Shown: piece after piece, positions 37,957 through 59,407 of the stretch | Layout: each line of letters starts with the position of its first letter | How positions within the stretch are numbered: the first letter of the stretch is position 1 | Assembly (NCBI RefSeq): GCF_988243305.1 | Contig: NZ_OZ547136.1 | DNA length: 64,000 bases | Strand: one strand, 5' to 3' | Program-made: the position numbers and the translations under genes | Notes under the pieces: generated by a model | Databases searched by the model: none | What the model saw: the letters and a program-made list of their open reading frames with translations, nothing else | What the model was told of the DNA's origin: nothing

Positions 37957-38307
37957 AGATGCTCAGCAGAATCCCCCACATCCTGAAGGAGGTGTATTCA
38001 GACAGGCATCCCACCTGACTTCGAATGATGATTATTCATCACTATAGAGAGCATTGATTCTAAGTGTCATATGAAAGTTCCAATTGATATATATCAAACA
38101 AAATAACCCTGATTAATGAATTATTACGTTTATCATGTTAATTCATCATTATTACATCATCATTGTAAATAATTAAATTAACTTCCATAACATTAAAATA
38201 TGTATCCACTGACGCTTTTTTACATAACGAAGAATTGACCATTTTGTCCTGTTGTGCCTTAATGTAAGTACCGTCCACTGCGTGGGACATACTTCAAGGA
38301 ACCTTTT

Positions 38308-38499
38308 GTGAGTCAGGCAACCAGTATGCGAAAACGACACCGATTTAACAGTCGCATGACCCGTATCGTACTGCTCATCAGCTTTATCTTCTTCTTTGGC
38401 CGTTTTATCTACTCGTCCGTCGGTGCATGGCAGCACCATCAGAGCAAAAAAGAAGCTCAGCAATCCACACTCTCCGTCGAATCACCGGTACAACGTTAG
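38308..38499 (+). CDS. yfgG: small membrane protein YfgG
   Basis: 63-aa ORF with one TM helix in an AT-rich region; matches the K-12 gene order. Confidence 0.6.
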   Translation: MSQATSMRKRHRFNSRMTRIVLLISFIFFFGRFIYSSVGAWQHHQSKKEAQQSTLSVESPVQR

Positions 38500-38809
38500 C
38501 GGTTACCTTCTCCACTTTTACAGAACATAACGGCACCTCGCTGTCGGATGCTTTTGCTCTTTGGGATTATCAAAGCGGCAGATATTCTTTCATCTTAAAT
38601 TTTACGTCTTTGTCCTGACTGATGTTTATCCTGTTTGGCTGCGAAATAAATATAAAATTAACACATATATTTTAATGATGTATTTTTATAAATTATTTCC
38701 CACATGAATTTTAATAAATTTAATCTATTCCTTTATACGCAATACATTTACTTTCCTCTTTTGATGATCTTAAATATCTTATTTTTCGTAATGTGTATAA
38801 CAAGGAATA

Positions 38810-39328
38810 GTGATGAAATTTAAAAAATGTCTTCTGCCTGTGGCAATGTTAGCGTCATTCACTCTGGCAGGATGCCAGTCAAATGCTGATGATCATGCCG
38901 CCGATGTTTATCAAACCGATCAACTGAATACCAAACAAGAAACTAAAACCGTTAATATTATTTCCATTCTTCCCGCAAAAGTTGCCGTAGACAACTCCCA
39001 AAATAAACGAAACGCACAAGCCTTCGGCGCGCTTATTGGTGCAGTCGCTGGCGGTGTTATTGGCCACAACGTCGGGTCTGGCAGCAATTCCGGAACGACG
39101 GCAGGTGCAGTTGGCGGCGGAGCTGTTGGCGCGGCAGCGGGTTCTATGGTGAATGATAAAACCTTAGTGGAAGGTGTTTCTCTAACGTATAAGGAAGGCA
39201 CCAAAGTGTATACCTCCACCCAGGTGGGTAAAGAGTGCCAGTTTACGACAGGTTTAGCCGTTGTTATTACCACGACGTATAACGAAACGCGTATTCAGCC
39301 AAATACCAAATGTCCTGAAAAGAGCTAA
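38810..39328 (+). CDS. yfgH: outer membrane lipoprotein YfgH (glycine-zipper)
   Basis: 172-aa ORF with lipobox LAGCQS and a Gly-rich glycine-zipper region. Confidence 0.8.
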   Translation: MMKFKKCLLPVAMLASFTLAGCQSNADDHAADVYQTDQLNTKQETKTVNIISILPAKVAVDNSQNKRNAQAFGALIGAVAGGVIGHNVGSGSNSGTTAGAVGGGAVGAAAGSMVNDKTLVEGVSLTYKEGTKVYTSTQVGKECQFTTGLAVVITTTYNETRIQPNTKCPEKS

Positions 39329-39343
39329 TAATCAGGAGGAGTC

Positions 39344-39883
39344 ATGAAGAAAGTTTTTCTTTGCGCCATCTTAGCCTCCTTAAGCTATCCGGCTATCGCC
39401 TCATCATTGCAGGATCAACTCTCTGCTGTCGCAGAAGCGGAACAGCAAGGTAAAAATGAAGAGCAAAGGCAGCATGACGAATGGGTCGCGGAGCGCAACA
39501 GGGAAATCCAGCAAGAGAAGCAACGTCGCGCAAACGCCCAGGCCGCGGCTAATAAAAGAGCGGCAACGGCAGCGGCGAATAAGAAAGCTCGTCAGGATAA
39601 ACTGGACGCCGAAGCCTCTGCGGACAAAAAACGCGATCAAAGTTATGAAGATGAGCTACGCAGCTTAGAGATTCAGAAACAAAAACTGGCACTGGCGAAA
39701 GAAGAAGCCCGCGTTAAGCGAGAAAACGAATTTATCGATCAGGAACTGAAGCACAAAGCTGCGCAAACCGATGTGGTGCAATCTGAAGCTGACGCAAACA
39801 GAAATATGACTGAAGGCGGTCGCGATCTGATGAAAAGCGTGGGCAAAGCAGAAGAGAACAAATCGGACAGCTGGTTTAATTAA
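39344..39883 (+). CDS. yfgI: periplasmic protein YfgI
   Basis: 179-aa ORF with a signal peptide and a charged coiled-coil-like body; RBS aggagg upstream. Confidence 0.8.
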   Translation: MKKVFLCAILASLSYPAIASSLQDQLSAVAEAEQQGKNEEQRQHDEWVAERNREIQQEKQRRANAQAAANKRAATAAANKKARQDKLDAEASADKKRDQSYEDELRSLEIQKQKLALAKEEARVKRENEFIDQELKHKAAQTDVVQSEADANRNMTEGGRDLMKSVGKAEENKSDSWFN

Positions 39884-39923
39884 TCGATGTAAGTAACTTC
39901 AAGCCTATAATTCTTGAAGATAA

Positions 39924-39954
39924 AAAACCCTCTGTAGTAACAGAGGGTTTTGTT
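39924..39954 (+). terminator. intrinsic terminator after yfgI
   Basis: aaaccctctgtagtaacagagggttttgtt: 10-bp stem, 6-nt loop, T-run. Confidence 0.7.
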
Positions 39955-40210
39955 CATTCATAGTGCAGGGATCAAAATCATTCCCACTCAGCTATCAATG
40001 AGAAAATAAAATATAAATAAATCAATGCCTTGAAACAAACCACTTAGCAGATACCACGAAAAATACCATGTCTCAATAATAGAGCTGTCTACAGGCTGTT
40101 CAGACGAACAATATGGCCGCTCTACTCCTAATAGAGTCCTTAGCTCGGTCACATCACTAATTTCAACATAGATGTGAACAAAATGAGGCATCAACGCACC
40201 TATTCAGTTA

Positions 40211-41725
40211 GTGTATTTGATATCGTATGTGGCAACAAAAAATGGAGTTACAATCTTGAAAGTAAGCGAGTTATCTAGCCAAATTGGCCGACTTTACGGC
40301 TTAAACAACATCAACATAATTATGGGCCGAAACGGTGCGGGAAAAAGTCGTTTCCTTCGTGATATCGAACAAACAATCAGCCAGAACAAGCAGCAATTTT
40401 ATGTCCGGTATGTAAGTCCAGAGCGAGCAGGATCGTTCAAGCGTGATGGCACCGTCCTCACAAATATGAGCGACAACCCCGAATGGCTGAGGCACACTCG
40501 GGCAGTTAATCAGGCAAGCAACTTCAAAGCTGCATCGGCTATGCTATTTCGCGAGGCCGAGACGCTTTACTTACGTCGACTTGCCAATACTCCGGAAATT
40601 CGAACTGATCTAACGCGAAACTTTCAGACAGACCGATTAAGTAAAATTAATCAGCTTCTCACTAACATTTCGCTCGAGATGGGTAATGTCGATTATGAGT
40701 TTCGATCACTTGTAGATGGTCAGATTATTGATCCGGCCCAAATCAGTAGCGGTGAATCGGAAGCGGTTGCATTAGCCGCGGAAATCATCTATTTCTTCGA
40801 CACAATAGATCCGGAGAAATTCAACGTACTCCTCCTCGATGAGCCTGATGTACATCTGCACCCCGACCTCCAAGCTAGACTGGGCAAGCTGATAATCAGT
40901 ATGCTCGACGAATTTAGAACACACGCGAACAGTATTGCCATATGCTTATCCACCCATAGTTCCCCGCTCGTCTGTTCTCTTGCCGCCTCCCCATATGTAT
41001 CAATCGGCACGAAGAGCTTTGCAGTGAATGAAATCTCATTGATACCGGCCAGCGATGAACTTCGAAAGATTGCACCATTCTTCGGGCACCCCCTATCGCT
41101 TTCTCTTAGCGAAGACGCTGCATTAATTTTGGAAGGAGAGGACGACGAACGAGTCTGGCAACAAGCGGCCAGAACATCACAGGGTCGAATAAAAATCTTT
41201 CCCGTACTAGCAGGTAGCGTAGATCAACAGAGTCAACTTGAGGATTTTTGCGTAGACCTCCTTAGTACACTCTATGACAATCCAATCGCCTTTTCCCTTC
41301 GTGATGGCGATGGTGTAATCAACGAGTCGCTTGAACATCGCCTACCTCTTAAACGCTATCGCTTACGATGCTACGCTATCGAAAATGTTCTTTTGACTGA
41401 TTCATGCCTTGCAGTAATGAATGTTACATGGGTGGAATTTGTAGACGCAGCCAAAAAATGGGTTGAGGATAATCAAACACACTCCGACATAGCGTTGATT
41501 GCAGAACTAATGGAATCGAACGACCGATTGCGTCACAAGAAGATCAAGAAAATCCGCCAACTCGTCTGTGCTATTGTTGAGTGTAAAAAACCTTGGGAGG
41601 TAGTAGTTGGACAAGCAATCGGGGCATTGACCAGAGAAGACCTTGAAAACTCGAATATGTTGATCGATTTTCTTGGAGGAGAGATGGTCAGCGACGTCAT
41701 CTTCAGGGACGCAATAAACCCATGA
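40211..41725 (+). CDS. ABC-type (AAA_21-like) ATPase with C-terminal TOPRIM/DUF4435-like acidic region; candidate OLD/PARIS-like anti-phage nuclease (accessory)
   Basis: Walker A GRNGAGKS, signature-like ISSGESEA, Walker B/D-loop LLLDEPDVHLHPDLQ, H-loop LSTHS; C-terminal about 200 aa carry LEGEDDE and RDGDG acidic motifs; no TM segments; probable true start TTG at 40256 preceded by ggag. Confidence 0.55.
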   Translation: MYLISYVATKNGVTILKVSELSSQIGRLYGLNNINIIMGRNGAGKSRFLRDIEQTISQNKQQFYVRYVSPERAGSFKRDGTVLTNMSDNPEWLRHTRAVNQASNFKAASAMLFREAETLYLRRLANTPEIRTDLTRNFQTDRLSKINQLLTNISLEMGNVDYEFRSLVDGQIIDPAQISSGESEAVALAAEIIYFFDTIDPEKFNVLLLDEPDVHLHPDLQARLGKLIISMLDEFRTHANSIAICLSTHSSPLVCSLAASPYVSIGTKSFAVNEISLIPASDELRKIAPFFGHPLSLSLSEDAALILEGEDDERVWQQAARTSQGRIKIFPVLAGSVDQQSQLEDFCVDLLSTLYDNPIAFSLRDGDGVINESLEHRLPLKRYRLRCYAIENVLLTDSCLAVMNVTWVEFVDAAKKWVEDNQTHSDIALIAELMESNDRLRHKKIKKIRQLVCAIVECKKPWEVVVGQAIGALTREDLENSNMLIDFLGGEMVSDVIFRDAINP

Positions 41726-41740
41726 GAATGACCTGATACT

Positions 41741-42136
41741 ATGACCACGATTGATCCGCCCTCATGGTATCAGTATTTATTTTATAACCCGCCTCTCAAT
41801 ACACCAAGAGATTGCGGTAAAGTGGAGCAGCATGATTACCAGCTTTATCTGGCGATAAATGATATTGAGCATACGAAAACGAAAGCAATGTCATCTAAGA
41901 CCAATAGTATCTGCGAGCAGTTCCATAAAACGATACTGAACGAGTTTTATCAGGTGACGTTCCGCAAAAAGTTATATGATGATCTTGAAGCATTACAATC
42001 GGTTCTTGATGAATGGCGGGTTCACTATAATAATGAGCGAACCCATCAGGGAAAAATGTGCAGTGGCCGAACGCCGATGGAAACGTTACTTGATGGAAAG
42101 CACATCTGGGATGAGAAAAACTTAAGCCAGATGTAA
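41741..42136 (+). pseudogene. remnant of a DDE (rve integrase-core) transposase, C-terminal fragment
   Basis: 131-aa ORF containing ...TNSICEQFHKTILNEF...WRVHYNNERTHQGKMCSGRTPMETL, the characteristic C-terminal segment of rve-type transposases; no N-terminal HTH or full DDE triad. Confidence 0.6.
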
Positions 42137-42229
42137 TCTGACAGATACCTTTATAAATAGCCGGTAATTGTCAGATCAGGTCTGATCTTATACAACTTAA
42201 CTGTGTTATGAGCAATACTGAGGATAGAT

Positions 42230-43000
42230 ATGGAACCAGAGAAATTTGCTGAAACTGCAATAGGATTTACCAAAAGCCCTCTTGGTATCATTGCACTCTT
42301 TATTGTTCTCGTTTATGGATTTGCCTCTTTCGTCGTTGGCTTTGGTAATGGCTTATCAGAGCATATAGCTCCCCTTATTTATTTCATGGTTTTCTTTCCT
42401 GTCATTGTGTTTCTTGGCTTTCTCTGGCTTGTTGCGAAACATCATAATAAGCTTTACGGGCCGTCAGATTTCAAAGATGAAAATAATTTTTTAAGAGCGC
42501 AAATAGCTACAGCAGCATCATTGACCGCCGCCACAGCAAAACAGCCTGAAAATAGTGCAGGGGTCACTGAAAGCCAACTGCGAAAAATCGTCAACGTTGT
42601 ATCCAATGCAAAACGGCAGAGTAAGCATGAAAAATGGCGAAATCGTATTTTATGGGTGGATGATCGACCAGAAAATAATGTTTACGAAAGACAGGCATTT
42701 GAGGCACAGGGAATAGAGTTCGCTTTAGCTCTTTCAACTGACGAAGCCTTAGAATTGTTAAAAACAAATAAGTTTGCAGCTATTATTTCGGATATGGATC
42801 GCAAAGAAGGGGCGCAAGAAGGTTATGTCTTACTAGAAAGATTACGCGCAATGGGAGACAAAACTCCTTTTATGATCTATGCGTCCTCAGATCTACCAGA
42901 GCACAAGAAAATGGCGAGAGAAAGAGGTGCAATTGGCTCCACTAATCGAGCAGAAGAACTCTTTCAAATTGTCATGGGTGCGATTACCAATGGCTCATAA
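42230..43000 (+). CDS. membrane-anchored stand-alone receiver (REC/CheY-like) domain protein (accessory)
   Basis: ATG preceded by gagga; two predicted TM helices near the N-terminus; C-terminal about 120 aa align by eye to CheY (ILWVDDRPEN / ISDMDR / TPFMIYASS); AT-rich codon usage. Confidence 0.55.
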   Translation: MEPEKFAETAIGFTKSPLGIIALFIVLVYGFASFVVGFGNGLSEHIAPLIYFMVFFPVIVFLGFLWLVAKHHNKLYGPSDFKDENNFLRAQIATAASLTAATAKQPENSAGVTESQLRKIVNVVSNAKRQSKHEKWRNRILWVDDRPENNVYERQAFEAQGIEFALALSTDEALELLKTNKFAAIISDMDRKEGAQEGYVLLERLRAMGDKTPFMIYASSDLPEHKKMARERGAIGSTNRAEELFQIVMGAITNGS

Positions 43001-43220
43001 CAAAGCCATTAAATTCGCCCCCTACGGCTACGGTTGCCGGGCGCTCACAACGGCCAGTATCTCATTTGTCGATTTGATCGATCTCATTGTAAGCACTTCC
43101 GGCTAGACTATTTTGGAATACCGCCATTTTGTTGGTAATGGCTTTTATCTTTAGGCCATAGCCGATGTTATAGAGTTACGGCCTTAAAAATAGAAGTCAT
43201 ACACTCAATGAAAAACCAAT

Positions 43221-43250
43221 AAAAAATGCCAGTCAGCAAACTGACTGGCA
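43221..43250 (-). terminator. intrinsic terminator of guaA
   Basis: On the minus strand tgccagtcagtttgctgactggcatttttt: 10-bp stem plus a U-run immediately after the guaA stop. Confidence 0.7.
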
Positions 43251-43294
43251 TTAAAGTTAGTTGGAAAGGCTTAATTTACTATTTATAGCCAGTC

Positions 43295-44872
43295 CTACTC
43301 CCACTCAATGGTAGCTGGCGGCTTGCCGCTGATGTCATACACCACGCGGGAAATACCGTTCACTTCATTGATAATGCGGTTGGAAACGCGACCGAGGAAG
43401 TCATACGGCAGGTGCGCCCAGTGTGCGGTCATAAAGTCGATGGTTTCGACAGCACGCAGAGAAACAACCCAGTCATACTTACGACCATCGCCCATTACGC
43501 CAACAGAACGTACTGGCAGGAAGACGGTGAACGCCTGGCTGACTTTGTCGTACAGGTCCGCTTTACGCAGTTCTTCAATGAAGATGGCGTCAGCACGGCG
43601 CAGCAGGTCACAGTACTCTTTCTTCACTTCACCCAGAACACGAACGCCAAGGCCTGGTCCCGGGAACGGGTGACGGTACAGCATGTCGTACGGCAGGCCC
43701 AGCTCCAGACCAATCTTACGCACTTCGTCTTTGAACAGCTCTTTCAGCGGTTCAACCAGGCCCATCTTCATCTCTTTCGGCAGGCCGCCCACGTTGTGGT
43801 GAGATTTGATGACGTGTGCTTTACCGGTTGCAGAAGCAGCAGATTCGATAACGTCAGGGTAGATAGTGCCCTGCGCCAGCCACTTCACGTCTTCCAGTTT
43901 CAGCGCTTCTTCATCGAATACTTCAACGAAAACGCGCCCGATGATTTTACGTTTTGCTTCCGGATCATTTTCGCCAGCCAGCGCTGACAAGAAGCGATCT
44001 TCTGCCGGTACATGAACAATGTTCAGACCAAAGTGATCGCCAAACATATCCAGAACCTGCTCTGCTTCGTTGAGACGCAGCAGGCCGTTGTCGACGAATA
44101 CGCAAGTCAGGTTTTTACCGATAGCGCGGTGCAGCAGCATTGCAGTCACGGAGGAATCCACGCCACCAGAGAGGCCGAGGATCACTTTATCGTCGCCTAC
44201 CTGCTCGCGGATGCGAGCTACGGCGTCGTCGATAATTTTCGCTGGCGTCCACAGGGCTTCACACTGGCAGATATCACGCACAAAACGCTCCAGCATGCGC
44301 ATACCCTGGCGGGTGTGAGTCACTTCCGGATGGAACTGTACACCATAGAAGCGTTTTTCTTCGTTAGCCATAATGGCAAACGGGCAGCTTTCGGTGCTGG
44401 CTACGGTGACGAAGTCGGACGGGATAGCGGTAACTTTATCGCCGTGGCTCATCCAGACATCGAGCAGCGGTTTACCGTCTGCAGTCAGCGCATCTTCGAT
44501 ACCGCGAACCAGTGCGCTGTCGTTTACGACTTCAACCTGCGCGTAGCCAAATTCACGTTCGTTAGAGGCTTCAACGTGACCGCCCAACTGCATTGCCATG
44601 GTCTGCATGCCATAGCAAACGCCGAATACCGGTACGCCTGCTTCAAAGACATACTGCGGCGCACGCGGGCTGTTTTCTTCGGTGGTGCTTTCCGGGCCGC
44701 CGGAAAGAATAATGCCGCTTGGGTTGAAGTCACGAATTTGTGCTTCTGTCACATCCCACGCCCACAGTTCGCAGTAAACACCCAGTTCACGCACGCGGCG
44801 CGCAACCAGTTGAGTGTACTGAGAACCGAAGTCCAGAATGAGGATGCGATGCTTATGAATGTTTTCCGTCAT
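43295..44872 (-). CDS. guaA: GMP synthase (glutamine-hydrolysing)
   Basis: 525-aa ORF with an N-terminal class-I glutamine amidotransferase and a C-terminal ATP-pyrophosphatase (SGGVDSS). Confidence 0.95.
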
Positions 44873-48004: not shown

Positions 48005-51000
48005 TTACTGGAAGCAGGTCACCAGACCCGGTTTATTCATTAGCGTGATACTACAATCCTGTGCTCCAGTGCCTTCGTCCATTCCACACTGTTGAGAGGA
48101 CAAATAAGGAAAACTTGGTGAAGACGGCCATCCCAGTGAATTAAAAACAGTGTGCAACAACTCTAATTCATTGTATGTCGGTGCATTTTCTATGCTGCCA
48201 CACTGCCTTGCAATATCCCATTTACTGGCATCAATGATATGTGCAGAAGCCCAGTTTTCGTAGTTAATAATCGGTGAGGATACGGGATTAGCCCCGGACG
48301 GCAATTCTGTCGTTAACAACGGTCGATGTAGCGATTTACCATTCACCACTACAGTGTCTGCCATATGTCCCCAAAAGTGCGCCGAGGAAACATTCGGGCT
48401 GGTTGGTACCGTAAAAATAGCGTCCAGCGTGTCTGTCGCGGAAGCGTAATTAGCCAGAGTAACCGTCAGTGGCGTTTTATAACCAGGGGTATTATCCTGG
48501 CGGAGCGTAAAACTTGCCGTCCCATCCGCGCCTGTCATGCCACTAATGGTATTACCGCTTTCACTCAGCGTAACAGCCGAACCAGATAACGGCTGAACGA
48601 TGAGATCGTCCATCGCCACCACATCACCATACAACGTCGCCCCAGCGTTACGCGGCGATGCATCGCCACGTTTCAAAGTAAATTCCACATTCGGTACCGT
48701 ATTCCCGGCGCTGTCTTTCACCGTCACGGTAACGGGCATGGCTTCGCCTTTTTTCACTTTCGCCGCCTGAATAGCTGCGTCAAACGCTGTTGAGGTCAGT
48801 GTGACGCTGGAAACCGTTGCGCGCGCAGACACCAGACACGCCTGATAAGCGGCATTACCATTCAATGTCGTTGTGCCATCTTTCATATTGAGCGACTGAT
48901 TTTTACCATCTGTAGTCTTATCCTGCGCCCACCAGTAATAATAAACTGACCAGCCAGTTTCCGTCGTAAGGGTGTTATTGGGATAACGTTGATACAGTGA
49001 CTTCATATCGCTGAGCAACGGTTGCCGGGCTTCCTCACAAGGGCTGAGGCTGGCATTTGCTTTAGTGGTTGACGAAAAATAGGGCCAGTCCTCATTATTG
49101 TTATTGGTTTTATTTACCCCGGAGGTCGATGGCAGCTCCTTCCACAATTTCGGTCGTTCAAAGACGGTTCCATTTGCCGCTGTCACCGTTTCTGGCATAT
49201 GACCCCAGTAGTCGGCATCCTGGGCGTCAGGGCTGGTGACCACGGTAAATATCAGGTCCAGGTTTGACGTGATCTGCGGATCTTGTGCAAGCGAGACCGT
49301 AAACGGCGTTGCCAGGCCGGTGGTGGCGTTTTGCGTAACATTGAACGTCACTGTGCCATCACTGCCGGTAAAACCAAGCCATTTTGCCGTATCCTGAGCA
49401 AAGGAAATACGGGTTGCTGTCGGTGTGACGACATCTACAATAAGATCATCTGCCAACGATGAGGGCCTAATTCCTGAACGACTTTTCGCCTGCGCCCGCT
49501 GAAGCGTCACGCCCTCACCACTCACCAGGTTGCCATTTTGGTCTTTTACTGTCACGACTAACGGGATTGTCTCGCCCTTTTTCGCCGATGCCGAAGGTGT
49601 GCCGCCGTTACTGGCGGTTTTCGTCTCATCAAATGCTACTGAAGTCAGGGTAACGCTTGACGGCTTAGAGTGAGGCTGTGCCAGGCAGAGCATTAGAGCA
49701 ACCGGAGAGAGTGCGGATGATGCTCGTCCCGTGCTTAGGTTAAAGACCTGATAATACCAGGAGCTACCATTGGAGTTAAGTAATTCATAAATCCACCAGT
49801 TTCCTGACGCTATCGGCAACCCCAGATCTTTCGTTAACGCTCCGTTTGGGTGATCGTCATATAACCCCTGCAATTCGCTGAGGCGCGGTTGATATTCCAG
49901 CGAACAATCTGCCGTCGCTTTTTGAGTACTATATATATATGACCATGTCTCATTATTACCGTTTACCGAGCTCCCCGTAGTCGCTTCCGCTGCCAGTAAT
50001 GGGCGCTTGAAGGTCACGCCTGCCGAACTGGTAAACGTTTCCGGCATATGGCCCCAGTATTTCGCTTTTGGCGAATCCGGGCTGGTTATCACCGTGAAAA
50101 TGACATCCAGCGTGACGCTTTTCGAGGTATCGCGCATGAGTTCTGCGCTGAGCGGCGTTGACAGCCCATAACTGCTATTCTGGCTGACCTCAAACGTAGC
50201 TTTACCATCGCTCCCTGTCTTCAGAAGAGCCTGCGTCCCATCCCCATACAAGATTGACGTTACCCCAGTAGGTTCCACAGGTATGATGGTAAGATCATCT
50301 GCAGAGGCATCGTACGCAGCTTTAGCGCGGTTCAGCGCAGTCCCTCGTTTAAGGTTAAAGCTGGCACCTGGCAGTGGATTGCCTGCGCTATCTCGCACCG
50401 TAACCGTCATCGGGATAACCTCTCCCTTCTTCGCTGTTGCGCTGGGCCTGCCATCATTGCTGGCCGTTTTCGTTGCATCCTCCGCCGTTGAGGTCATTTC
50501 AATAGAAGCCGCCTCTGGATGAGGGTTTACCAGGCACAGCATTAATGCCGAGGTGGTTGAAGACGCTCTTCCACTTGATCCATTTAACAGATAAATATAT
50601 TGATCGTACCAGTTACCCGCATATGCCACCATGTCGTAAGCCCACCAGTAGCTATTTACCGGAATACCCAGATCGGTCTTTATCGCACGACTTGGGTGTT
50701 CGTCGTACAATGCCTGTAGTTCGCTTAACAGTGGTTGATAATGTACATCGCACCCGCTTTTATCGATATCCCCCTTTGTTGCCGATCTCAACACGGCCCA
50801 CTCTTCATTGTCTTCTATAAACGACTGGCCCGACGATCTTTCAGCAGAGAGTAAGGGGCGTTTGAAGGCAGTACCAGAACGCGTAGTGAACGTTTCCGCC
50901 ATATGCCCCCAGTAACTTGCCAGGGGGGTATCCGGGCTGGTTATCACGGTAAACATCACGGGTAATTTGTTGGATTCCAGGCTCGACTGATAGGCCTGAG

Positions 51001-54000
51001 CGTACACATTGGTTACCAGGCCTATAGAATCATCCTGCTTTACCGTAAACGTGGCTGTCCCGTCTGCACCTGTCACCGCATAAAGGGAGATTGATGGAGT
51101 ATCCACTCTTGCCGACGTTCCCGCAGCGTTGATTACAGAGATAGTTCTGTTCGACAACTGTACATTCTGGCGATTTGTCGATCCTTCACGTTTGAGAATA
51201 AACGGAACATTTGGTACGACATTTCCCTGCGCATCTTTTGTCACCACGCGAATCACCGCGTCGTCACCTTTTTTCCGTTTTAGTGCGCTGAGGGTTTCGT
51301 CAACTTTGACAAATTGTGTCGCATCGTTCGCTTCAACAATAATGTGGCTGGTCACCGCCACTGGGGTAGCCCGACAACTTAGCAGTCCTATACTGCTTGA
51401 CATGACCTCCGTTCCATCACCCGTTTTTAACGAAACCGCTTTAAAATTAAATGTTTGAGTGTAATAGGCAACAACCGTACTGGAGATATAGGCGCGTGAT
51501 ACAGGCCATCCCGTAACGTCATGTATTGGCACGTAACCTTCATCGGCATACAGTGACTCCAGCTCACTTTCAATCGGGACATATCCTGCACCGCAACCAT
51601 TTACAGATGTGTTGTTCGACTGGTCCGGCGAGAACAGTGACCAGCTCTCTCCATCTTCCTGAAAAGAGCTTCGACTGGTTGTAACGGAAAGCTCATCTTG
51701 CAATAACGGTCTTTTATAAATAAGCCCGCCTGCACCGGTCATCGTTTCGGCCATATGCCCCCAGAATTTTGCTTTAGGGGTATCGGGGCTGGTTATCACC
51801 GTAAAGACTACCGGAAGCATTGATTTTACGTTATTATCTGTATCCAGCATGGCGGTCAGTTCGGTTTTTAAACCCGTGGTATTGTCCTGTTTCAGTGCAA
51901 GTGTTGTCGTACCATCTGCGCCGGTAACGCCATAAATCAGTGCTGTTGTTGAGGAAAAATTACTCTGCGTGTTACCCCAGGCATCCGTCACGATGAGCGC
52001 GCCTGCTGTCACCGTTGTAGACGCATTTGCCCGATTGACGCTAAGGTTACGTTTAAGCGTAAACGCGGTATTTCCCACCGGGTTACCCTGCGAATCTTTA
52101 GTGGTCACGCGAACCACGACTTCTTCCCCTTTTTTCGCTTTGACAACATTATTCGTACTGTCAAATTTTGTGGGGTCCGCAGCCTCAAGAACGATTTGGC
52201 TAGCCTTGACGATCGGCGTCGTCTGGCAGGTAAGCAGTTCTTTTGTGGCCGATGGAATTATCGAACTGGTGCCTGAACTGAGATTGACGGCCTTGAAGTC
52301 ACGCTGTTCCAGACTACTGCTGGCTGTCGTGCTGGTAAGGTAACTTGAGGCGACGGGCCAGCCCTGAACCGTTTTCATCGCATTGCCACGGTTGGCTTCA
52401 TACAATGACTCCAGCCCGGCCTGAGAGGGAACATATTCACTACCACAACCATTAGAGGATGTGCTTGTCGCCTGAGTTTGGGTAAATTGCGCCCAGTCCT
52501 CATTATCTTCTGCAATCGCTGTTCGACCCGACGTACTGGATAACTCTTTCAACAATAATGGGCGTTTAAAGACCGTTCCATCCGCAGCCGTCACCGTTTC
52601 CGGCATATGCCCCCACATTTTCGCTTTATTGCTGTCCGGGCTGGTGACAACGGTAAAAATGGTATCGAGGGTCGCTTTTTTCGTTGTGTCTGAATAGAGC
52701 GCAGCGGTCAGCGACGTTTTTGTGCCATGGGTATCCGGGCGGGTAATAGTGAGAATTTTAGTGCCATCGCTGCCGGTCATCGCGCTGTATGCTGCGGCGG
52801 TATCATTGAGCGAAGTTTCATCCGCCAGGCCACTATTGATCACAACCGGCGCAACCAGCGCATCACCGCTACCGGCAATGTGTTTTTCGTTTGATCGTGT
52901 ATAACCATCGCCACGCTTCAGGGTAAAAGGCATATCACCCAATGGATTGCCCTGAGCATCTTTTACCGTCACCTTCACCTGTAGCGTTTCGCCTTTTTTC
53001 AGCTTCGCCGCATTTGCTGCCGCGTTCCACTGCGCCGGGTCCACCACTTCCAGCGTAATGCTGCTGGCAGGATTGTTAGCCGTCGTCAGGCAACTGACAT
53101 AAACCGCCGTGCTACCGCCAACGGTCCGCGCGCCATCGTTGAGGGCTATGGTGTAGTAATGCGGCACCTGATCCGCGGGCGAACTGCTCCAGTAGGGCTG
53201 ACGCTGCGTTGGCCAACCGTGTACCGTTTGAACGGCGTTACCGCTGTTAGCATCATAGAGCGCGTTAAGCTGGGAACGGCGTGGGAGCATATTGGCACCA
53301 CAGCCACCTTTACTGGTGCTGGAAGTGTTGGCCTGGCTAACGCGCGACCACACTTCGTTATTTTCCGTTAATGTGCCGTCCGGGCTGGACACTTCCGCAG
53401 CCAGCCGGGGTCGGGCAAAGGTTAATGCATCGACGGTAATCGTCTCATCCATATGCCCCCACATCTGCGCGCCAACCGCATCCGGACTGGTGAGCGTAGT
53501 GAAAATCACATTGTAATTAACAGTATTGGGAATATAGGAGTTTACAGGCGCAATATTCAGCGGCGTCGCTAAGCCCACACCTTGCGGTTGCTTAATTTCA
53601 ACAGTAGCAAAACCCTGCGCATCCGTAGTACCTGCATAGACTAAAGACGGTTGCGATGTTCCGTAGAGCGTGCCATTCATCTCGATTGCGCCGCGGGTTG
53701 GATCATCGAAACCCGTGGTCTGCCCCTGACGATTTTTCCCCATATCTTTCGTGATGGTGAACGCGGTATACGGCACGGGCGCATTATTCAAGGCATTAAA
53801 GGTGCGTACCGTCATGGTAATCGTTTCACCCACTTTAGCCTGCGCTCTGCTGCTTGTGGAAACATCATGATCGGTGTTCGCAGCAATCTGGGCGACCATC
53901 TCATTGCCCGAACAAGAAAGGTAGTTTTGCTTAAAGCCGGAATAGGTGTCGATGTTGCCCGTGGCCAGGTTCACCGACGCGTGCGACGTCTCTTCCACCG

Positions 54001-56047
54001 CACTAAGATACGCTTTTTGCAACGTTGGCCAGCCATATTCGGTGCCGATGACATTGGCTGGATGTGCGGCAAACAAACTGTGCAATGAGCTTTGGCTCGG
54101 AATATGACCTAAACCACACTCAGCCTGCATACTGCTATTCTGATCAAACAGCGCCCAGTCTTCGTTATTTTCCCGCACTGCTCCCAGTTCGTTGTCGGTT
54201 TCATCCGCCAGCCGTGGGCGTTTAAAGATATTATTCGCTTCAATAATGCCTAACATATGTCCCCACATCCGCGCTTTGTCGGAATCAGGGCTGGTGATCA
54301 CCGTAAAAATAACGTCTTTCTCATCCGAGGCGGTAAAATCACTGCGCATTTTCGCGGTGATGTGTGTTTTCACCCCCACGCCGCCTGGCTGGGTCAGCGT
54401 CAGAGAGGCCTCTCCGTTAGCATCAGTGATCCCTTCATAGGTATGGGCGTCAACTTTGCGAACGTTACTGCCACCATCAATTTGTACCGGGTGCGTCTCC
54501 CACGCAGCGTCAGTTTGATTCTTACGGTTAACACCGTCATCCAGATGCAGCGAAAAGTAGTAGTAAGCCAGCGGCTGATCGTTGTTCTTGCTATCGGTAA
54601 TCGTCAGGCGTAAAGAAGCCTCTTCCCCCACCTTTACTTTCATCGCTTTTATCGTCGAATCATAACTGCCCGGCGTCAGTACCAGCTTCGGTTCAACATC
54701 GGGCGCTTCTTTATCGACACAGCTCACAATAAACGTCGTATCGTCCGGTTTTTGCGCTTCGCTGCGGTTCGAAACATCCGCCGCATGGTGCTGGCCACTC
54801 ATCCCCGCCAGTGATGACCAGTAGAAATTACCCTGCATCGGCCAACCAGCCACATCCTGCACTGACGTTGGCACCACCGTCGCCAGCGCACCGAACTGAC
54901 GCATTCCGGGCAAAATGTCGCAATGTTTATCCGCGCCGCTCCAGGTAAAGGTGGACCAGGTTTCATTGTGATCGTTAACCGTACCGTTTTCATTATCGAC
55001 TTCCGCCGCCAGTTTTGGTCGACTAAAAGTGTAATCACGGGCCTTCAGCGTATCGGGCATATGACCCCACATTGTAGCCTGCGGGACATCCGGGCTGGTG
55101 AGGACGGTAAAGATCACTGCCGTTTCACTGGCCTGAGCAATACCCGCGAGGCTCGCGACCAACGGCGTTTTTACACCAAGGCCGTTGGCCTGGGTGACCG
55201 TAACCGTGGCAACACCATTCGCATCGGTAGTACCACGATATTCCGTCGCGGTGGTGGTTAATTCGGTCGTGCCCAGTTTTACCGGCGCAGTATTGTTCAC
55301 TACACCCTGGCGGTTTTCAGCATCTTTGCGTTTGATAACAAAAGGAATATTCCCCACAACATTACCGACGCAATCTTTGGTGGTGACCGTTAACGTGATA
55401 CTGCCGCCAACCGTCGTTTTCGCCGCACCGGAGGATTCGTCATAGCCCGCGGCGCTGACGGAAATAAGGTCACCCTGCGCGGGCGCAATCTTCAGCGTCA
55501 CTTTCTGATCGGCGAGCGTCAGAACACTTTCATAGGGATAGCCCGTCGAGGTGAGTAAATATAACAGCGGCATGGTCTGTTGGGGATCAGGCTGCGCCCA
55601 GGCGACCAGCGAACGCCCGGCAAGTCCCTGAGCGCAAAACGAGCGATCTGCGACTGGCTGTGGGTCCAGTAAGGTGTCCGGCGTCGCGGCATCCGCCCAA
55701 ACTAAAGATACTGTCGGTGGCGTTTGGTTTTCCCAACGTGGGGTGGAAATGATATCGCCTTCTCTGTCTTGCGGATTGGTGACGAGCAATTTAGAGACGC
55801 TAATATCCGCGCTGAATTCACTCGGTTTAGCGGTAAACGCTACCTCATGCGTCTTTGCAGGATCCAGAAAGACACTGCCCTGGTAGACGGGTATGCTGGC
55901 ACTGTCGGCGGTGGGCACGGTACCGTTAAATTCGCCGACCGTATCTGAAGAGTCTTGCCATGCAGATTCTGCCCATGACCGCCCAGGCAGCATTGCGCTT
56001 ATCAGCAATGCGCATAACACAAGGATTTTATTCAGGGTCAGGGACAT
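48005..56047 (-). CDS. giant repetitive surface protein, RatA/RatB-like (Ig-like plus lectin-like repeat modules); CS54-like island
   Basis: 2680-aa uninterrupted ORF with a signal peptide and nine repeats each containing (I/V)FTV(I/L)TSPD...(M/Y/F)WGHM...RP.L...NE.W...CG...L..LY...GWP....YW; no frameshifts seen. Confidence 0.8.
48100..55700 (-). repeat. intragenic tandem repeat array, about 9 units of roughly 0.80-0.86 kb
   Basis: Plus-strand string catatgNcccca (reverse complement of the WGHM codons) recurs at about 48362, 49196, 50045, 50900, 51752, 52604, 53450, 54254 and 55057, giving spacings of 803-855 bp, all multiples of 3. Confidence 0.8.
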
Positions 56048-56167
56048 GACAGAAACTCCACCGGTTGTTAAACGGACGCTTGTCGCATCAACATATTTTG
56101 CTTAATCCGGGATTAAGCAAAATATGCGGAAACAGCATTCCCTTGCGGGAATGCTGCTGAGTACGCG

Positions 56168-57145
56168 TTATTTGTGTTTGTAAATAATGTGAAGTTTGTA
56201 CCCCTGTACCCCGTCGCCGTTGGTCGGGATGGTAAGAGCTTCTTTACCATCGCGCGCAGGGCCGTTAAGGTTGGTTCTGGCGTCTTCGTTGGTCGCAGGG
56301 ATGACCAGATTGTTATTATCGAAGCTTGAGTTAACGATACCACCCGAGGTGCCGAGCTGTTGGCTACTCCCAGAAAGTACCCAACGGAAATCATAATTGG
56401 CGGTAACGTCAGCATCGGTACCCGCATCAAACTTGCCGTTTTTGTTCTCATCCGAGTACAGTTTGGCCACGTAGGTTTTGCCAAGTTCGATTGGCGTGCT
56501 GCCGTTGATAAGGTTGATACTGGTACCATCAACAAAGATGGCGACTTTCAGGTTCTGGTTAACCACCGGCCCTGGCGCAACGTTGTCGCTGTCGCTTCCG
56601 CCGCCGCTGGCAGTGGAAATGTCATAAAGATGCAGCGCAGTCCCGACGTTTGGCGTACCGGTCTGCGTGGTTGGCGTAATTTCAATACCGATATAACGAC
56701 CACGGTCGTCATCGGTAAGAGTGTAACTGGTCACCTTCGTTGCCAGCTCTTTTGGATCGTTACCCTGAGCGTCCTTGTAGCTCATCCAGCGGATAGTATC
56801 GATAGTTTTCGCGTTATCGCCCAATACCCCAAGATCCACGTCGCCTTCGGTATCACCAATTTCCCAACTTACGGTTAATTTATCACCCGAGTAAAGACGC
56901 TTGTCCGTTTCACTGCCTGTCGGGCGAGCGCCTTTTAGATCAGAAGTCAACGTTACATGGTCGGCATCTGTCGTAGCGCTTCCCCCTTCCGAATAGAGCC
57001 ACGGAATGGTTCCCTGGAAAATATTGGTTTCGCCGCTGTCGACCCAGGCGCTTTCTTCCGCCAGCGCCACAGGTGCCACACAATAACCTGCCAGTGCCAG
57101 CGCCAATGCGATCCGGGTCAGACCGCGTCTTTTATCCTGCTTCAT
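56168..57145 (-). CDS. SinI-like secreted protein (paralogous to the SinH passenger C-terminus)
   Basis: 325-aa ORF with a signal peptide; C-terminus LVIPATNEDARTNLNGPARDGKEALTIPTNGDGVQGYKLHIIYKHK parallels the SinH-like C-terminus; N-terminal motif EESAWVDSGETNIFQGTIP resembles the start of the giant protein. Confidence 0.65.
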   Translation of the reverse strand: MKQDKRRGLTRIALALALAGYCVAPVALAEESAWVDSGETNIFQGTIPWLYSEGGSATTDADHVTLTSDLKGARPTGSETDKRLYSGDKLTVSWEIGDTEGDVDLGVLGDNAKTIDTIRWMSYKDAQGNDPKELATKVTSYTLTDDDRGRYIGIEITPTTQTGTPNVGTALHLYDISTASGGGSDSDNVAPGPVVNQNLKVAIFVDGTSINLINGSTPIELGKTYVAKLYSDENKNGKFDAGTDADVTANYDFRWVLSGSSQQLGTSGGIVNSSFDNNNLVIPATNEDARTNLNGPARDGKEALTIPTNGDGVQGYKLHIIYKHK

Positions 57146-57199
57146 TGATGCTCTCCTTAATGAACCTTCAGCGACTGGCCGACTGGCCTTACGCCAATC

Positions 57200-59407
57200 T
57201 TATTTTTTGGTATACAGCACGCGTAAACCGTATCCCTGCAAGCCATCTCCCGCTTGTGCGCCATAGGTTTGCGCTGCTTCGCGGTTAGTGGCCGGAATCA
57301 CAATGTCCTCATTGGAAGTGTTCGCCTGTGCACCCACTTCACCATTGATGCTCTTGCCGGTAAATTCCCACTTGTAGTCGTACTGCGCCATCTCTTCGTC
57401 AGTCAGTTTTTCGACCTGCTGGAAGACACCGTCTTTATTGCTGTCACGCCACAAAACAAATCGATAAGTGTTGTTGAGCGGCAGCGGTTCTTTATCTTTA
57501 CCTATCAGGTTGCTGGGTTTAGCTGCCCCCACACGATAGATAAATGCATTTAGCCCACCAATTTCTGCCCCGAGGAAAGTGACATCCACATAGTTACTGT
57601 CGTCGTAGGGCGCAGCTTTTGCTTTCCAGCGATAGGTGCCGGGTAAGGTACTGGAGAGGGTGACAGTGCCCTTTTCTTTATCTTGTTTAGCGATAAAAAC
57701 GCAGGGGTTGTCGGTCGAGCAAGGCTTGTTGGTTAACGTCACTCGTTTGTCCTGCGCGTCGTAAAGCTGCGGCGTGAGGTTATCTTCCGGCAGCGCATCG
57801 CCATTGCGGTCGGTGTTATCGCCAAAGCTGTCGGTTACATCGAGATCCATCACCACACCATCAACGCCATCTGCCTGAGCGCTGGCTTCGTGGCTGTGGT
57901 TGTTCTCTTCCGGCACGTTCGCGATGTTATTAACAATCAACTCTATTTTACGGTCCTGCTGAACGGTGATTTCCACCACGCCAGAGTTCTGTCGGTTGCC
58001 CTTTTCATCTTCCAGTGCCAGACGTACTCGCCAGGTATTGAGTTTTTCTTGTTCGGCTTTGTCAGAGCTGTACTGCCAGGCGGGCAGCACCAGGTTCCAG
58101 TGGTTATTGTTACCCTCTGTCAGGGTATTCTCTTTGATAACCGGCATAACCAACGTGCGGGCAGCATTGTTTTTCGCCTGCCATGACGCAGCGACAATTT
58201 TGTAGTGGTGGTTGATAAGCGCGTTAATGGTCCACTTACATTTTTCCAGCCCGACGGCCGCTTCGGGAGTGTCCTTAATGACGCACTCAGGGTGCTCGTT
58301 GGTGGCATCCGCTTTTAACCACAGGGTGACATCAAGCGGATCTTTTTCTTTGTATTCCAGAACAATAAAGTTATTACGCTCAACAAAATCATGACGACTG
58401 CCCATCAACGAGTGAGCCGCTTTCACTTTATCGCTATCCAATTGATCTTTTAGCGGAACGCCGAACTGATAATTAAGAGTGGCATTAATGCTGACATCGC
58501 TGTTATCTCCGGTCCCCGCTTTATAGTCCGCCCCAACGGTTAGTAATGGCACCGGTTGATAATTCAGTCCAAGTGTTACCGCGTAGGGATCTTTCTCCAA
58601 ATTATCCGTACCAAAAAGGGCGACTTCATCGCCGTAATATTGCTCGAAGACAACTTTGCCCCCCAGTTGCGGATAAGAAGGTAACCAGGCTTCGGCACGA
58701 ATATCCCAGCCGCGCGCAGGGCGTTCTTCATAAAAGCCGAAATCTTCAGAGTCTTTCCAGTCAGAAAGCGGATGATAATAGTTGCCAGAGAATTTTAAAT
58801 AATCAGTCCACGCTTCGCCGCCTAAACCTAAACGGCGATGTCCTCGGGTAAAATCATAATCATAAAATACATTTCCACCCAATAACCATTCATTAAAATT
58901 ATGTCTTACCCCAAGACCAATATTCCCGATTGTACGATCTTCTTTTCGTTGCGCAGAAAATTGACTGAAATAAACAGTGGTTTGATTATCGTACCAGGGA
59001 ACAAAATAATCGATGGAACTGCCATCCAGATCGCCGCCCTGGCCAATGGAGAGGTTCGAACGGACCTTACCGTAGGGAGAGAGAGTGTCTTCAATATAAG
59101 ATTGTGCGGTTGAGATGATTTGACTTTGCAGATAGCTTCTGGCCTGAGATTCCAGCGCCTCAGGGGTCAAGTTTTCAAACCCTTGCGTGGCGGAGTTGAT
59201 GACGTAATCGGCTCCGCGCTCTTTCAGCGATTTACCCTTGTTGGTTTGTTCATCCCGCTGTGCTGCCTGGCTACCTAAATCAGGTAACGATTCGTTTTGC
59301 TTAACATTTATCTCTGGTGCCGCGAAAGCAGCACCAGAGATAAATGTTAGAATAATACAGCGTTTCCATCGCAGCATGCACTTTCCCTGTGACAATGATA
59401 CAGTCAA
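57200..59407 (-). CDS. intimin/invasin-family inverse autotransporter, SinH-like
   Basis: 735-aa ORF; probable start at the internal Met (MLRWKRCIILTFISGAAFA signal peptide); N-terminal half has alternating beta-strand patterns typical of the intimin/invasin barrel (GLGVRHNF, LNYQPVPLLTVGADYK), followed by a passenger domain. Confidence 0.75.
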   Translation of the reverse strand: MTVSLSQGKCMLRWKRCIILTFISGAAFAAPEINVKQNESLPDLGSQAAQRDEQTNKGKSLKERGADYVINSATQGFENLTPEALESQARSYLQSQIISTAQSYIEDTLSPYGKVRSNLSIGQGGDLDGSSIDYFVPWYDNQTTVYFSQFSAQRKEDRTIGNIGLGVRHNFNEWLLGGNVFYDYDFTRGHRRLGLGGEAWTDYLKFSGNYYHPLSDWKDSEDFGFYEERPARGWDIRAEAWLPSYPQLGGKVVFEQYYGDEVALFGTDNLEKDPYAVTLGLNYQPVPLLTVGADYKAGTGDNSDVSINATLNYQFGVPLKDQLDSDKVKAAHSLMGSRHDFVERNNFIVLEYKEKDPLDVTLWLKADATNEHPECVIKDTPEAAVGLEKCKWTINALINHHYKIVAASWQAKNNAARTLVMPVIKENTLTEGNNNHWNLVLPAWQYSSDKAEQEKLNTWRVRLALEDEKGNRQNSGVVEITVQQDRKIELIVNNIANVPEENNHSHEASAQADGVDGVVMDLDVTDSFGDNTDRNGDALPEDNLTPQLYDAQDKRVTLTNKPCSTDNPCVFIAKQDKEKGTVTLSSTLPGTYRWKAKAAPYDDSNYVDVTFLGAEIGGLNAFIYRVGAAKPSNLIGKDKEPLPLNNTYRFVLWRDSNKDGVFQQVEKLTDEEMAQYDYKWEFTGKSINGEVGAQANTSNEDIVIPATNREAAQTYGAQAGDGLQGYGLRVLYTKK

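Follow-up and report, generated by a model that had tools for sequence, protein, structure and literature searches.

The window analyzed here, a stretch of 64,000 nucleotides, is a region of the Escherichia coli chromosome that contains the sinH-sinI-ratA locus between xseA and der-bamB-yfgM-hisS, with the three genes on the minus strand. This adhesin locus of E. coli is a known one, in which the gene for an inverse autotransporter (type Ve), SinH, is followed by genes for two Sec-exported, barrel-free proteins, the small SinI and a giant RatA-like protein. Our main finding is that SinI and the RatA-like protein share a motif at their mature N termini and that this motif is real, family-wide, and position specific; in addition, the C-terminal domain of SinI and the final passenger domain of SinH, both of them beta-sandwiches, are paralogues that arose by an ancient duplication. 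The locus, its annotation, the paralogy of SinH and SinI, and the hypothesis that SinH has the neighboring proteins as substrates have all been published, and the motif is the new, testable detail. No description of the shared N-terminal motif was found in the accessible open literature, and it is apparently new.

In its general form, the motif reads LKxGxWQx5[ST]xx[IF]xGTxP, spans approximately 20 residues, and follows immediately on the signal peptide, in a single register without gaps. When SinI and Rat proteins are aligned without gaps and anchored on the proline (position 0), the common residues are L at -20, K at -19, G at -17, W at -15, Q at -14, S or T at -8, I or F at -5, G at -3, and T at -2, whereas position -4 is family specific, being Q in SinI and N in Rat. 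Two types can be told apart: type A, without LKxG and with EF, and type B, with LKxGxWQ and I. The SinI motif is exemplified by EESAWVDSGETNIFQGTIPWL for type A, the type of the window clade, and by NLKSGQWQIVSEQTGTIQGTVPWI for type B, and the Rat motif of type B by LKGGTWQELNSVTGAVNGTAP. The window allele reads ESAW.DS..T..F.GT.P, in which G and P are invariant. It occupies residues 30 to 51 of SinI (EESAWVDSGETNIFQGTIPWLY; positions 56993 to 57058, minus strand), as delimited by conservation within the family and a match to the Rat profile, and residues 27 to 45 of the RatA-like protein (55913 to 55969, minus strand), as delimited by Rat family conservation, reciprocal hidden Markov model (HMM) matches, and hhalign. 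The signal peptides in front of it were read from the sequence: that of SinI comprises residues 1 to 29 (cleavage between ...VALA and EES; 57059 to 57145, minus strand), with a basic N-region, a hydrophobic core, and an A-x-A site recognized by eye and an AlphaFold predicted local distance difference test (pLDDT) score below 50 over residues 1 to 30, and that of the RatA-like protein comprises residues 1 to 26 (cleavage between ...SWA and ES; 55970 to 56047, minus strand), with additional support from the alignment of Rat N termini.

A preliminary description of the region had noted that the N terminus of SinI resembles that of the giant protein. Taken alone, the window pair is only weakly similar (BLASTP E of 0.016, in an alignment that includes the signal peptides), with 11 of the 19 residues aligned after the predicted cleavage sites being identical, but the likeness is borne out at the level of the families: comparison of the motif only, SinI family against Rat family, gave P of 9.4e-11 by hhalign, and comparison of the N-terminal regions with the signal peptides removed gave P of 6e-5 to 2e-4. 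Reciprocal searches of 2218 six-frame open reading frames (ORFs) with the motif HMMs ranked the N termini of the other family ahead of every unrelated ORF; nine Rat proteins were matched with E values of 1e-4 to 0.013 and 14 SinI proteins with E values of 1e-5 to 0.024, always just after the signal peptide, while the first unrelated ORF appeared at E of 0.74 to 0.88. An alignment of 42 SinI-like proteins, reaching down to 23% identity, retains eight invariant columns, two of which are G45 and P48 of the motif. At the nucleotide level, the stretches of sinI and ratA that encode the motif are 49% identical, and 7 of the 11 identical residues differ in codon (including AGC versus TCT for serine), so that recent gene conversion was rejected as the source of the likeness.

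The motif is kept in inverse-autotransporter operons much more distant than those of Escherichia. In six distant loci (L023, L024, L025, L028, L029, and L030), every SinI-like or co-oriented downstream partner begins with a signal peptide followed by [ST]xx[IL]xGxxP, while the domains after the motif vary, being SinI-like, Big_2 plus lectin-like, or Big_1 plus Invasin_D3. Upstream of these partners lies an inverse-autotransporter gene (L023, L028, and L030) or the C-terminal part of a SinH-like protein (L025 and L029), and in the operons L023, L025, L028, and L030, one or two partners accompany an inverse autotransporter. In the distant operons, the inverse autotransporter shares its terminal domain with the first partner, which ends in it as well, e.g., ...GADGVQGYELKVDY versus ...GADGVQGYSLKVDY. 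Of 18 candidates among the small full-length SinI relatives, 14 have [ST]xx[IL]xGxxP right behind the signal peptide. The motif marks proteins encoded beside this inverse-autotransporter subfamily. In a profile search of 1.8 billion representative sequences, the part of SinI that recurs as a repeat in giant proteins was confined to its middle (profile positions ~90 to 175); the matches start at profile positions ~85 to 120 and never include the motif. The repeat unit, which corresponds to the GDTEGD region of SinI domain 1 (window 56606 to 56900), is present in up to 27 copies per protein, and 616 representatives were matched at E of <1e-3. A search of a large protein database with a 42-column motif alignment was uninformative, yielding eight short fragments from 76 candidates.

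The third genes of L023 (6001 to 7092) and L025 (2155 to 3243) encode "mini-Rat" proteins of ~360 amino acids, in which the signal peptide and the motif are followed by a DxEGD beta-sandwich, a weak Big_2 match, and, at the C terminus, a lectin-like domain similar to the intimin D3 region. A natural fusion was observed in the Salmonella protein P0152 (532 amino acids), in which SinI residues 1 to 185 (signal peptide, motif, and domain 1) continue into a Rat protein precisely from the GTxP of its motif (...TGGG followed by DGTAPLADG...); missing from the fusion are the C-terminal domain of SinI and, on the Rat side, the signal peptide and the upstream half of the motif. Four giant repeat proteins (P0210, P0221, P0282, and P0305) carry [ST]xx[VI][RK]G[RH]AP, a sequence similar to the partner motif, directly after the signal peptide; these N termini may be due to chance, since a regular expression for the core motif matched the first 80 residues of 6 of 106 giant repeat proteins versus ~7 expected (0.81 per 1000 residues), a rate equal to background. 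Two database entries also deserve mention: the 3.1-kb contig JAIJJM010000381.1 (locus L002), assigned by binning to "Collinsella sp." (an actinobacterium), matches E. coli sinI plus the start of ratA at 99% identity and is most likely a binning contamination, and the naming of SinI-like proteins of Hafnia, Yersinia, Zophobihabitans, and Fukatsuia as "Ornithine carbamoyltransferase" in UniProt, met among the AFDB matches, looks like a propagated misannotation.

At the opposite end of SinI, the preliminary description had aligned the last 45 residues of SinH and SinI and had placed the pair at positions 56168 to 59407. The coordinates are right, spanning the sinI ORF (56168 to 57145) and the sinH ORF (57200 to 59407) on the minus strand, and the alignment is correct with its extent understated. 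BLASTP with composition-adjusted statistics aligned SinH residues 641 to 735 with SinI residues 218 to 325 (36% identity; E of 4e-13), taking in the stretches YDYKWEFTG/YDFRWVLSG and VIPATN...DG(L/V)QGY. Profile-profile comparison by hhalign extended the match to SinH residues 617 to 735 (57203 to 57559, minus strand) and SinI residues 197 to 325 (56171 to 56557, minus strand), with E of 1.2e-24, a probability of 99.6%, and 35% identity over 113 columns, and the homology therefore concerns a whole domain of ~120 residues. Consistently, the NCBIfam model NF040711 (partner_SinI) matches SinH residues 629 to 732 (E of 4.4e-21), and the SinH model matches SinI residues 208 to 325. The description of SinI as a paralogue of the SinH passenger holds for the last SinH domain and fails for SinI domain 1, which has no SinH counterpart, no part of SinI beyond residues 197 to 325 having matched SinH in the profile-profile comparison. 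The shared C-terminal domain is not of low complexity, since its block-mean pLDDT in the AlphaFold model of SinI is 88 to 98; with the C-terminal module structured and the N-terminal one conserved, neither similarity can be put down to composition. Across 18 loci, the C-terminal domains of SinH and SinI are ~38% identical, and pairs from the same locus (38.1%) are no more alike than pairs from different loci (38.3%; permutation p of 0.63). Concerted evolution was rejected on this ground, and the duplication is accordingly old, with copies that diverged independently. The paralogy itself has already been published: in a passage of Heinz et al. 2016 (PMC4943183) the similarity of SinH and SinI is credited to Kingsley et al. 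2003, and Goh et al. 2019 (PMC6714894) restate it for IatB, the E. coli orthologue of SinH.

The motifs of SinI and Rat co-vary within loci. In 19 loci, the two motifs of the same locus share a mean of 10.2 of 21 positions versus 8.7 of 21 for pairs taken from different loci (permutation p of ~1e-5, uncorrected for phylogeny), and their types are always matched, in that the absence of LKxG and the presence of F at -5 always coincide in SinI and Rat of one locus. Old paralogous segments that diverge independently are expected to display no same-locus excess, and the C-terminal paralogues of SinH and SinI, serving as an internal control, display none. The window carries the type A allele of a cassette composed of sinI and the Rat leader (positions 55920 to 57060), the divergence of which concerns loci L003, L017, and L027 as well. 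Comparison of L003 with L017 delimits the divergent cassette from the start of mature SinI to approximately codon 41 of Rat, i.e., inside the motif, with flanks of 80 to 86% nucleotide identity. In complete E. coli genomes, sinI is strongly bimodal, with 927 genomes at ≥95% nucleotide identity, 753 at 60 to 80%, and 11 in between, and the adjacent SinH is 85 to 90% identical in protein across these alleles. The sequence type 131 (ST131) allele, for example, is 67% identical in SinI and 90% identical in SinH.

AlphaFold models SinI (mean pLDDT of 85.7) as two beta-sandwich domains connected by a GGGSDSD linker, the former of which (domain 1, approximately residues 52 to 180; 56606 to 56992, minus strand) contains GDTEGD and has weak family matches, such as that to Pfam IG_AIR9 (E of 0.008). 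Within the motif, the block-mean pLDDT is 74 for residues 31 to 40 and 92 for residues 41 to 50. In the model of RatA residues 25 to 205 (mean pLDDT of 84.9), the first 12 residues score below 50 and the next 8 score ~60, while values above 90 are reached from the residue after P45, where the N-terminal domain begins (approximately residues 46 to 200, before the first Big/DUF repeat; 55448 to 55912, minus strand). Judging by these profiles, the motif adjoins the first domain with its GTxP end, and its Trp-containing half has the look of a free extension, the low confidence of the upstream half in the RatA model being as expected of such an extension. Alignment and structure prediction of the shared modules, as suggested in the preliminary description, returned a confident beta-sandwich for the C-terminal domain and a motif that is partly of low confidence in RatA. 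A sequence search with SinI against the PDB gave no match at E of ≤1, and Foldseek against the PDB gave only generic tandem immunoglobulin (Ig)/fibronectin type III folds (E of ≥0.004); against the AFDB, it recovered SinI-like and SinH proteins across Enterobacterales and Orbales. Foldseek with the RatA N-terminal domain recovered Rat proteins and smaller "invasin domain"/lectin proteins of Budvicia, Yersinia, and Gilliamella, with no SinI-family protein in the top 50.

The window locus is a member of a known group and shows no difference in kind from the Salmonella CS54-island sinH-sinI-ratA/ratB and the E. coli iatB/sinH ("ila") loci, which have the same genes in the same order and the same der/xseA neighbors. 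The similarity of SinH and SinI and the barrel-free nature of SinI were described by Heinz et al. (PMC4943183) and Goh et al. (PMC6714894), and SinI and Rat proteins were proposed there as SinH substrates by analogy to ZirTSU. Heinz et al. (PMC4943183) call the N-terminal region of Rat proteins "highly divergent" and make no mention of a motif shared with SinI; a survey of the Int/Inv family from 2010 makes no mention of SinI/Rat proteins, and a paper from 2026 still calls Salmonella SinH uncharacterized. The ZirTSU system of Salmonella, composed of ZirT and the secreted ZirS and ZirU, resembles the window locus in that an inverse autotransporter is followed by Sec-exported, barrel-free Ig-type proteins, and we found the corresponding pattern in the window, namely an inverse autotransporter next to a signal-peptide-bearing Ig-type partner that shares a passenger domain. 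The match of SinI residues 69 to 210 to the ZirU_fam model NF040485 is weak (E of 1.3e-7; 32 bits versus a cutoff of 100). Secretion of ZirS is strictly dependent on ZirT (PMC2270342), so that dependence on the inverse autotransporter has been demonstrated for ZirS and ZirT, whereas SinI and RatA are substrates of SinH by proposal. The accessible Zir literature (PMC2270342) reports no recognition signal.

Two further systems offer likenesses in concept. In two-partner secretion (TPS; type Vb, TpsA/TpsB), a Sec-exported passenger carries a conserved signal-peptide-proximal element, by which it is recognized by a dedicated outer-membrane barrel protein encoded beside it; the difference is that the SinH barrel is of the IAT_beta and not of the Omp85/POTRA kind and that the SinI/RatA element measures ~20 residues, whereas the TPS domain measures ~250. 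Pfam scans of SinI and SinH detected no TPS/hemagglutination-activity domain and no POTRA/Omp85 domain. The NPNL/NPNGI motifs were found to be absent from ZirS by Gal-Mor et al. (PMC2270342). By analogy only, the motif can also be compared with the N-terminal extensions of chaperone-usher pilus subunits, which take part in donor-strand exchange: these are short, conserved mature N termini of Ig-fold proteins, flexible in the monomer, and the subunit genes stand in a row beside the gene of an outer-membrane assembly protein, but the sin locus contains neither usher nor chaperone.

We tentatively favor, with a confidence slightly short of even, the reading that SinH-partner proteins share the motif as an element for recognition or docking and that the SinH-like domain of SinI serves as a second contact surface. 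According to this reading, inferred from sequence comparisons, Sec export and signal-peptide cleavage would expose the motif at the mature N terminus of SinI and RatA; the motif would be the common element by which the SinH system engages both proteins, in a role akin to that of the TPS domain or of a pilus-subunit N-terminal extension; and the outcome would be either retention on the outer membrane or transfer across it, with the C-terminal domain of SinI presenting a further contact surface, of the Ig type, like the one that SinH displays. The docking reading fits the position of the motif after the signal peptide, the matched types of SinI and Rat in each locus, and the end of the cassette inside the Rat motif, as well as the ZirTSU precedent and the published proposal of SinI and Rat as SinH substrates. 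Several observations weigh against it. The type A motifs form one clade, the split between types A and B being essentially a single event that affected several positions, and sinI is in physical linkage with the 5' end of ratA; both points, together with the missing correction for phylogeny, qualify the permutation result. SinH is 83 to 88% identical to the window SinH in loci with type A partners and 85 to 88% in Escherichia loci with type B partners, while SinI identity falls to ~45% across motif types. Co-variation of SinH with the motif type is thereby rejected for most of the protein, and a strict lock-and-key relation with SinH is unlikely. In the SinI model, the motif core (residues 41 to 50) seems, by its high pLDDT, to pack on SinI's own first domain, and the motif could be a structural cap. 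Finally, Goh et al. (PMC6714894) report that IatB forms biofilm without the protein encoded downstream. The docking idea of the preliminary description is partly supported: it fits the motif position, the matched types, and the cassette, but SinH does not track the motif type, which argues against tight co-evolution of SinH and the motif. A patch of SinH at residues ~625 to 647 (window 57467 to 57535), where the terminal domain starts, is different in loci of different SinI types (e.g., L003 versus L017) within flanks that are nearly the same, and it could reflect either co-evolution with a partner or diversifying selection on an exposed loop.

The observed conservation of the motif could also have other explanations. 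The main rival to docking, which we consider rather unlikely, holds that the motif is only structural, i.e., the N-terminal cap or first strand of an inherited homologous N-terminal domain, conserved for folding and with no shared binding partner. The confident motif core of the SinI monomer model and the start of the confidently folded RatA domain at "GTVP" speak for this explanation, as do the collinear islands D.EGD, W, and T.TG.P in the hhalign comparison of SinI domain 1 with the RatA N-terminal domain (P of 6e-5 over 147 columns). However, with the motif removed, the similarity of the two domains is not significant (P of 0.018 over 15 columns), so that profile comparison merely hints at their homology; moreover, the Foldseek search with the RatA domain brought up no SinI-family protein among its 50 best matches, conservation is much higher in the motif than in the domains that come after it, which are of different types in distant operons, the W-containing half of the motif is of low confidence in the RatA model, and same-locus co-variation is unexpected for a purely intramolecular element. 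Recognition of the motif by a common factor other than SinH, such as a periplasmic chaperone, the beta-barrel assembly machinery (BAM) or the translocation and assembly module (TAM), a processing protease, or a host ligand, would make it the mark of a shared handling step. The constancy of SinH across strongly different motifs favors such a factor, and all operons have the invariant G..P core in common, regardless of the sequence of the inverse autotransporter; yet the motif was found only in this protein family, adjoining this inverse-autotransporter subfamily wherever the flanks suffice to tell, and its lineage-specific part co-varies between SinI and Rat, which is more readily reconciled with a partner from the same cassette (SinI itself, for instance) than with a housekeeping factor. 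We regard this explanation as improbable. Least of all do we expect the N-terminal likeness to be a product of recent recombination or gene conversion, chance, or composition with no functional meaning. What can be said for it is the marginal E value of the window pair, signal peptides included, and the travel of sinI and 5' ratA as one cassette, against which stand the family-level P value (9e-11) and the reciprocal HMM ranking, the low nucleotide identity with mostly different codons for identical residues, the family-specific residues kept apart at -4, and the persistence of the motif from Escherichia to distant operons. A more specific version of docking, which we put forward as a long shot, is a head-to-tail relay in which the SinH-type terminal domain would act as the acceptor and the signal-peptide-proximal motif as the donor, so that SinH would hold SinI by the motif of SinI, and SinI, through its own copy of the acceptor domain, would hold RatA by the motif of RatA.

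Regarding the annotation of the locus, sinH (57200 to 59407, minus strand) can be read as a 735-amino-acid ORF from a TTG at 59407, while RefSeq, which also names the gene sinH, places the start 10 codons downstream at 59377, giving 725 amino acids. The sinH orthologues begin at the MLRW/MVQW position and the ATG of RefSeq gives MLRWKRC..., and the shorter form is therefore probably right. In the numbering of the longer ORF, residues 11 to 735 match the NCBIfam model NF033423 at equivalog level (1483 bits; cutoff of 999). The beta-barrel is at residues 73 to 346 (58370 to 59191, minus strand; Pfam IAT_beta PF11924, E of 9.7e-108), matches the invasin/intimin barrels 4e1t and 4e1s of the PDB in a sequence search (E of 1e-73 and 7.5e-65, respectively), and is followed by the passenger (residues 355 to 735) on its C-terminal side, as is characteristic of the type Ve architecture. 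The sinI gene (56168 to 57145, minus strand; 325 amino acids) encodes a SinI-family autotransporter-associated protein (NF040711; 337 bits versus a cutoff of 165 over residues 7 to 322), in agreement with RefSeq, and a Pfam scan of SinI detected no barrel domain. The ratA-like gene (48005 to 56047, minus strand; 2680 amino acids) encodes a giant DUF823/DUF824-repeat adhesin (NF011844; 5385 bits versus a cutoff of 3870), with homologues that contain Pfam PF05688/PF05689. The gaps measure 54 bp between sinH and sinI and 120 bp between sinI and ratA, and no terminator-like site was found on the coding strand in either of them; co-transcription of sinH and sinI is reported in a review (PMC12525524). 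The locus is present in approximately one-third of complete E. coli genomes (1749 of 5426). A barrel-free SinI gene lies directly downstream of the inverse-autotransporter gene, on the same strand, in the window, in 18 loci with an intact sinH, and in L021, where sinH is disrupted; a SinI-type gene has the same place in the distant loci L023, L028, and L030. Elsewhere in the window, the stretch from 38000 to 44000, upstream of guaA, is low in G+C content (42 to 46% versus ~52% elsewhere), and the matching RefSeq genome has a truncated integrase gene and an orphan response regulator gene at its guaA-proximal end (~42 to 43 kb), which suggests an islet remnant.

To conclude, SinH is a vaccine candidate against extraintestinal pathogenic E. 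coli, and the existence of two deeply divergent E. coli SinI alleles beside a nearly constant SinH matters for the choice of antigen. The surface routing of proteins encoded beside inverse autotransporters is referred to as a "Gordian knot" by Heinz et al. (PMC4943183), and a motif of ~20 residues, two of them invariant, that every partner protein examined carries at its mature N terminus provides a concrete handle on it. If the relay were true, the motif would be the long-missing recognition signal for partner secretion by inverse autotransporters, and SinI would act as the adaptor by which a small inverse autotransporter becomes an anchor or export platform for the 2680-residue RatA-like protein, which has no secretion system of its own; the swappable cassette of sinI and the Rat leader would then preserve the match between donor and acceptor as the exposed surface varies.

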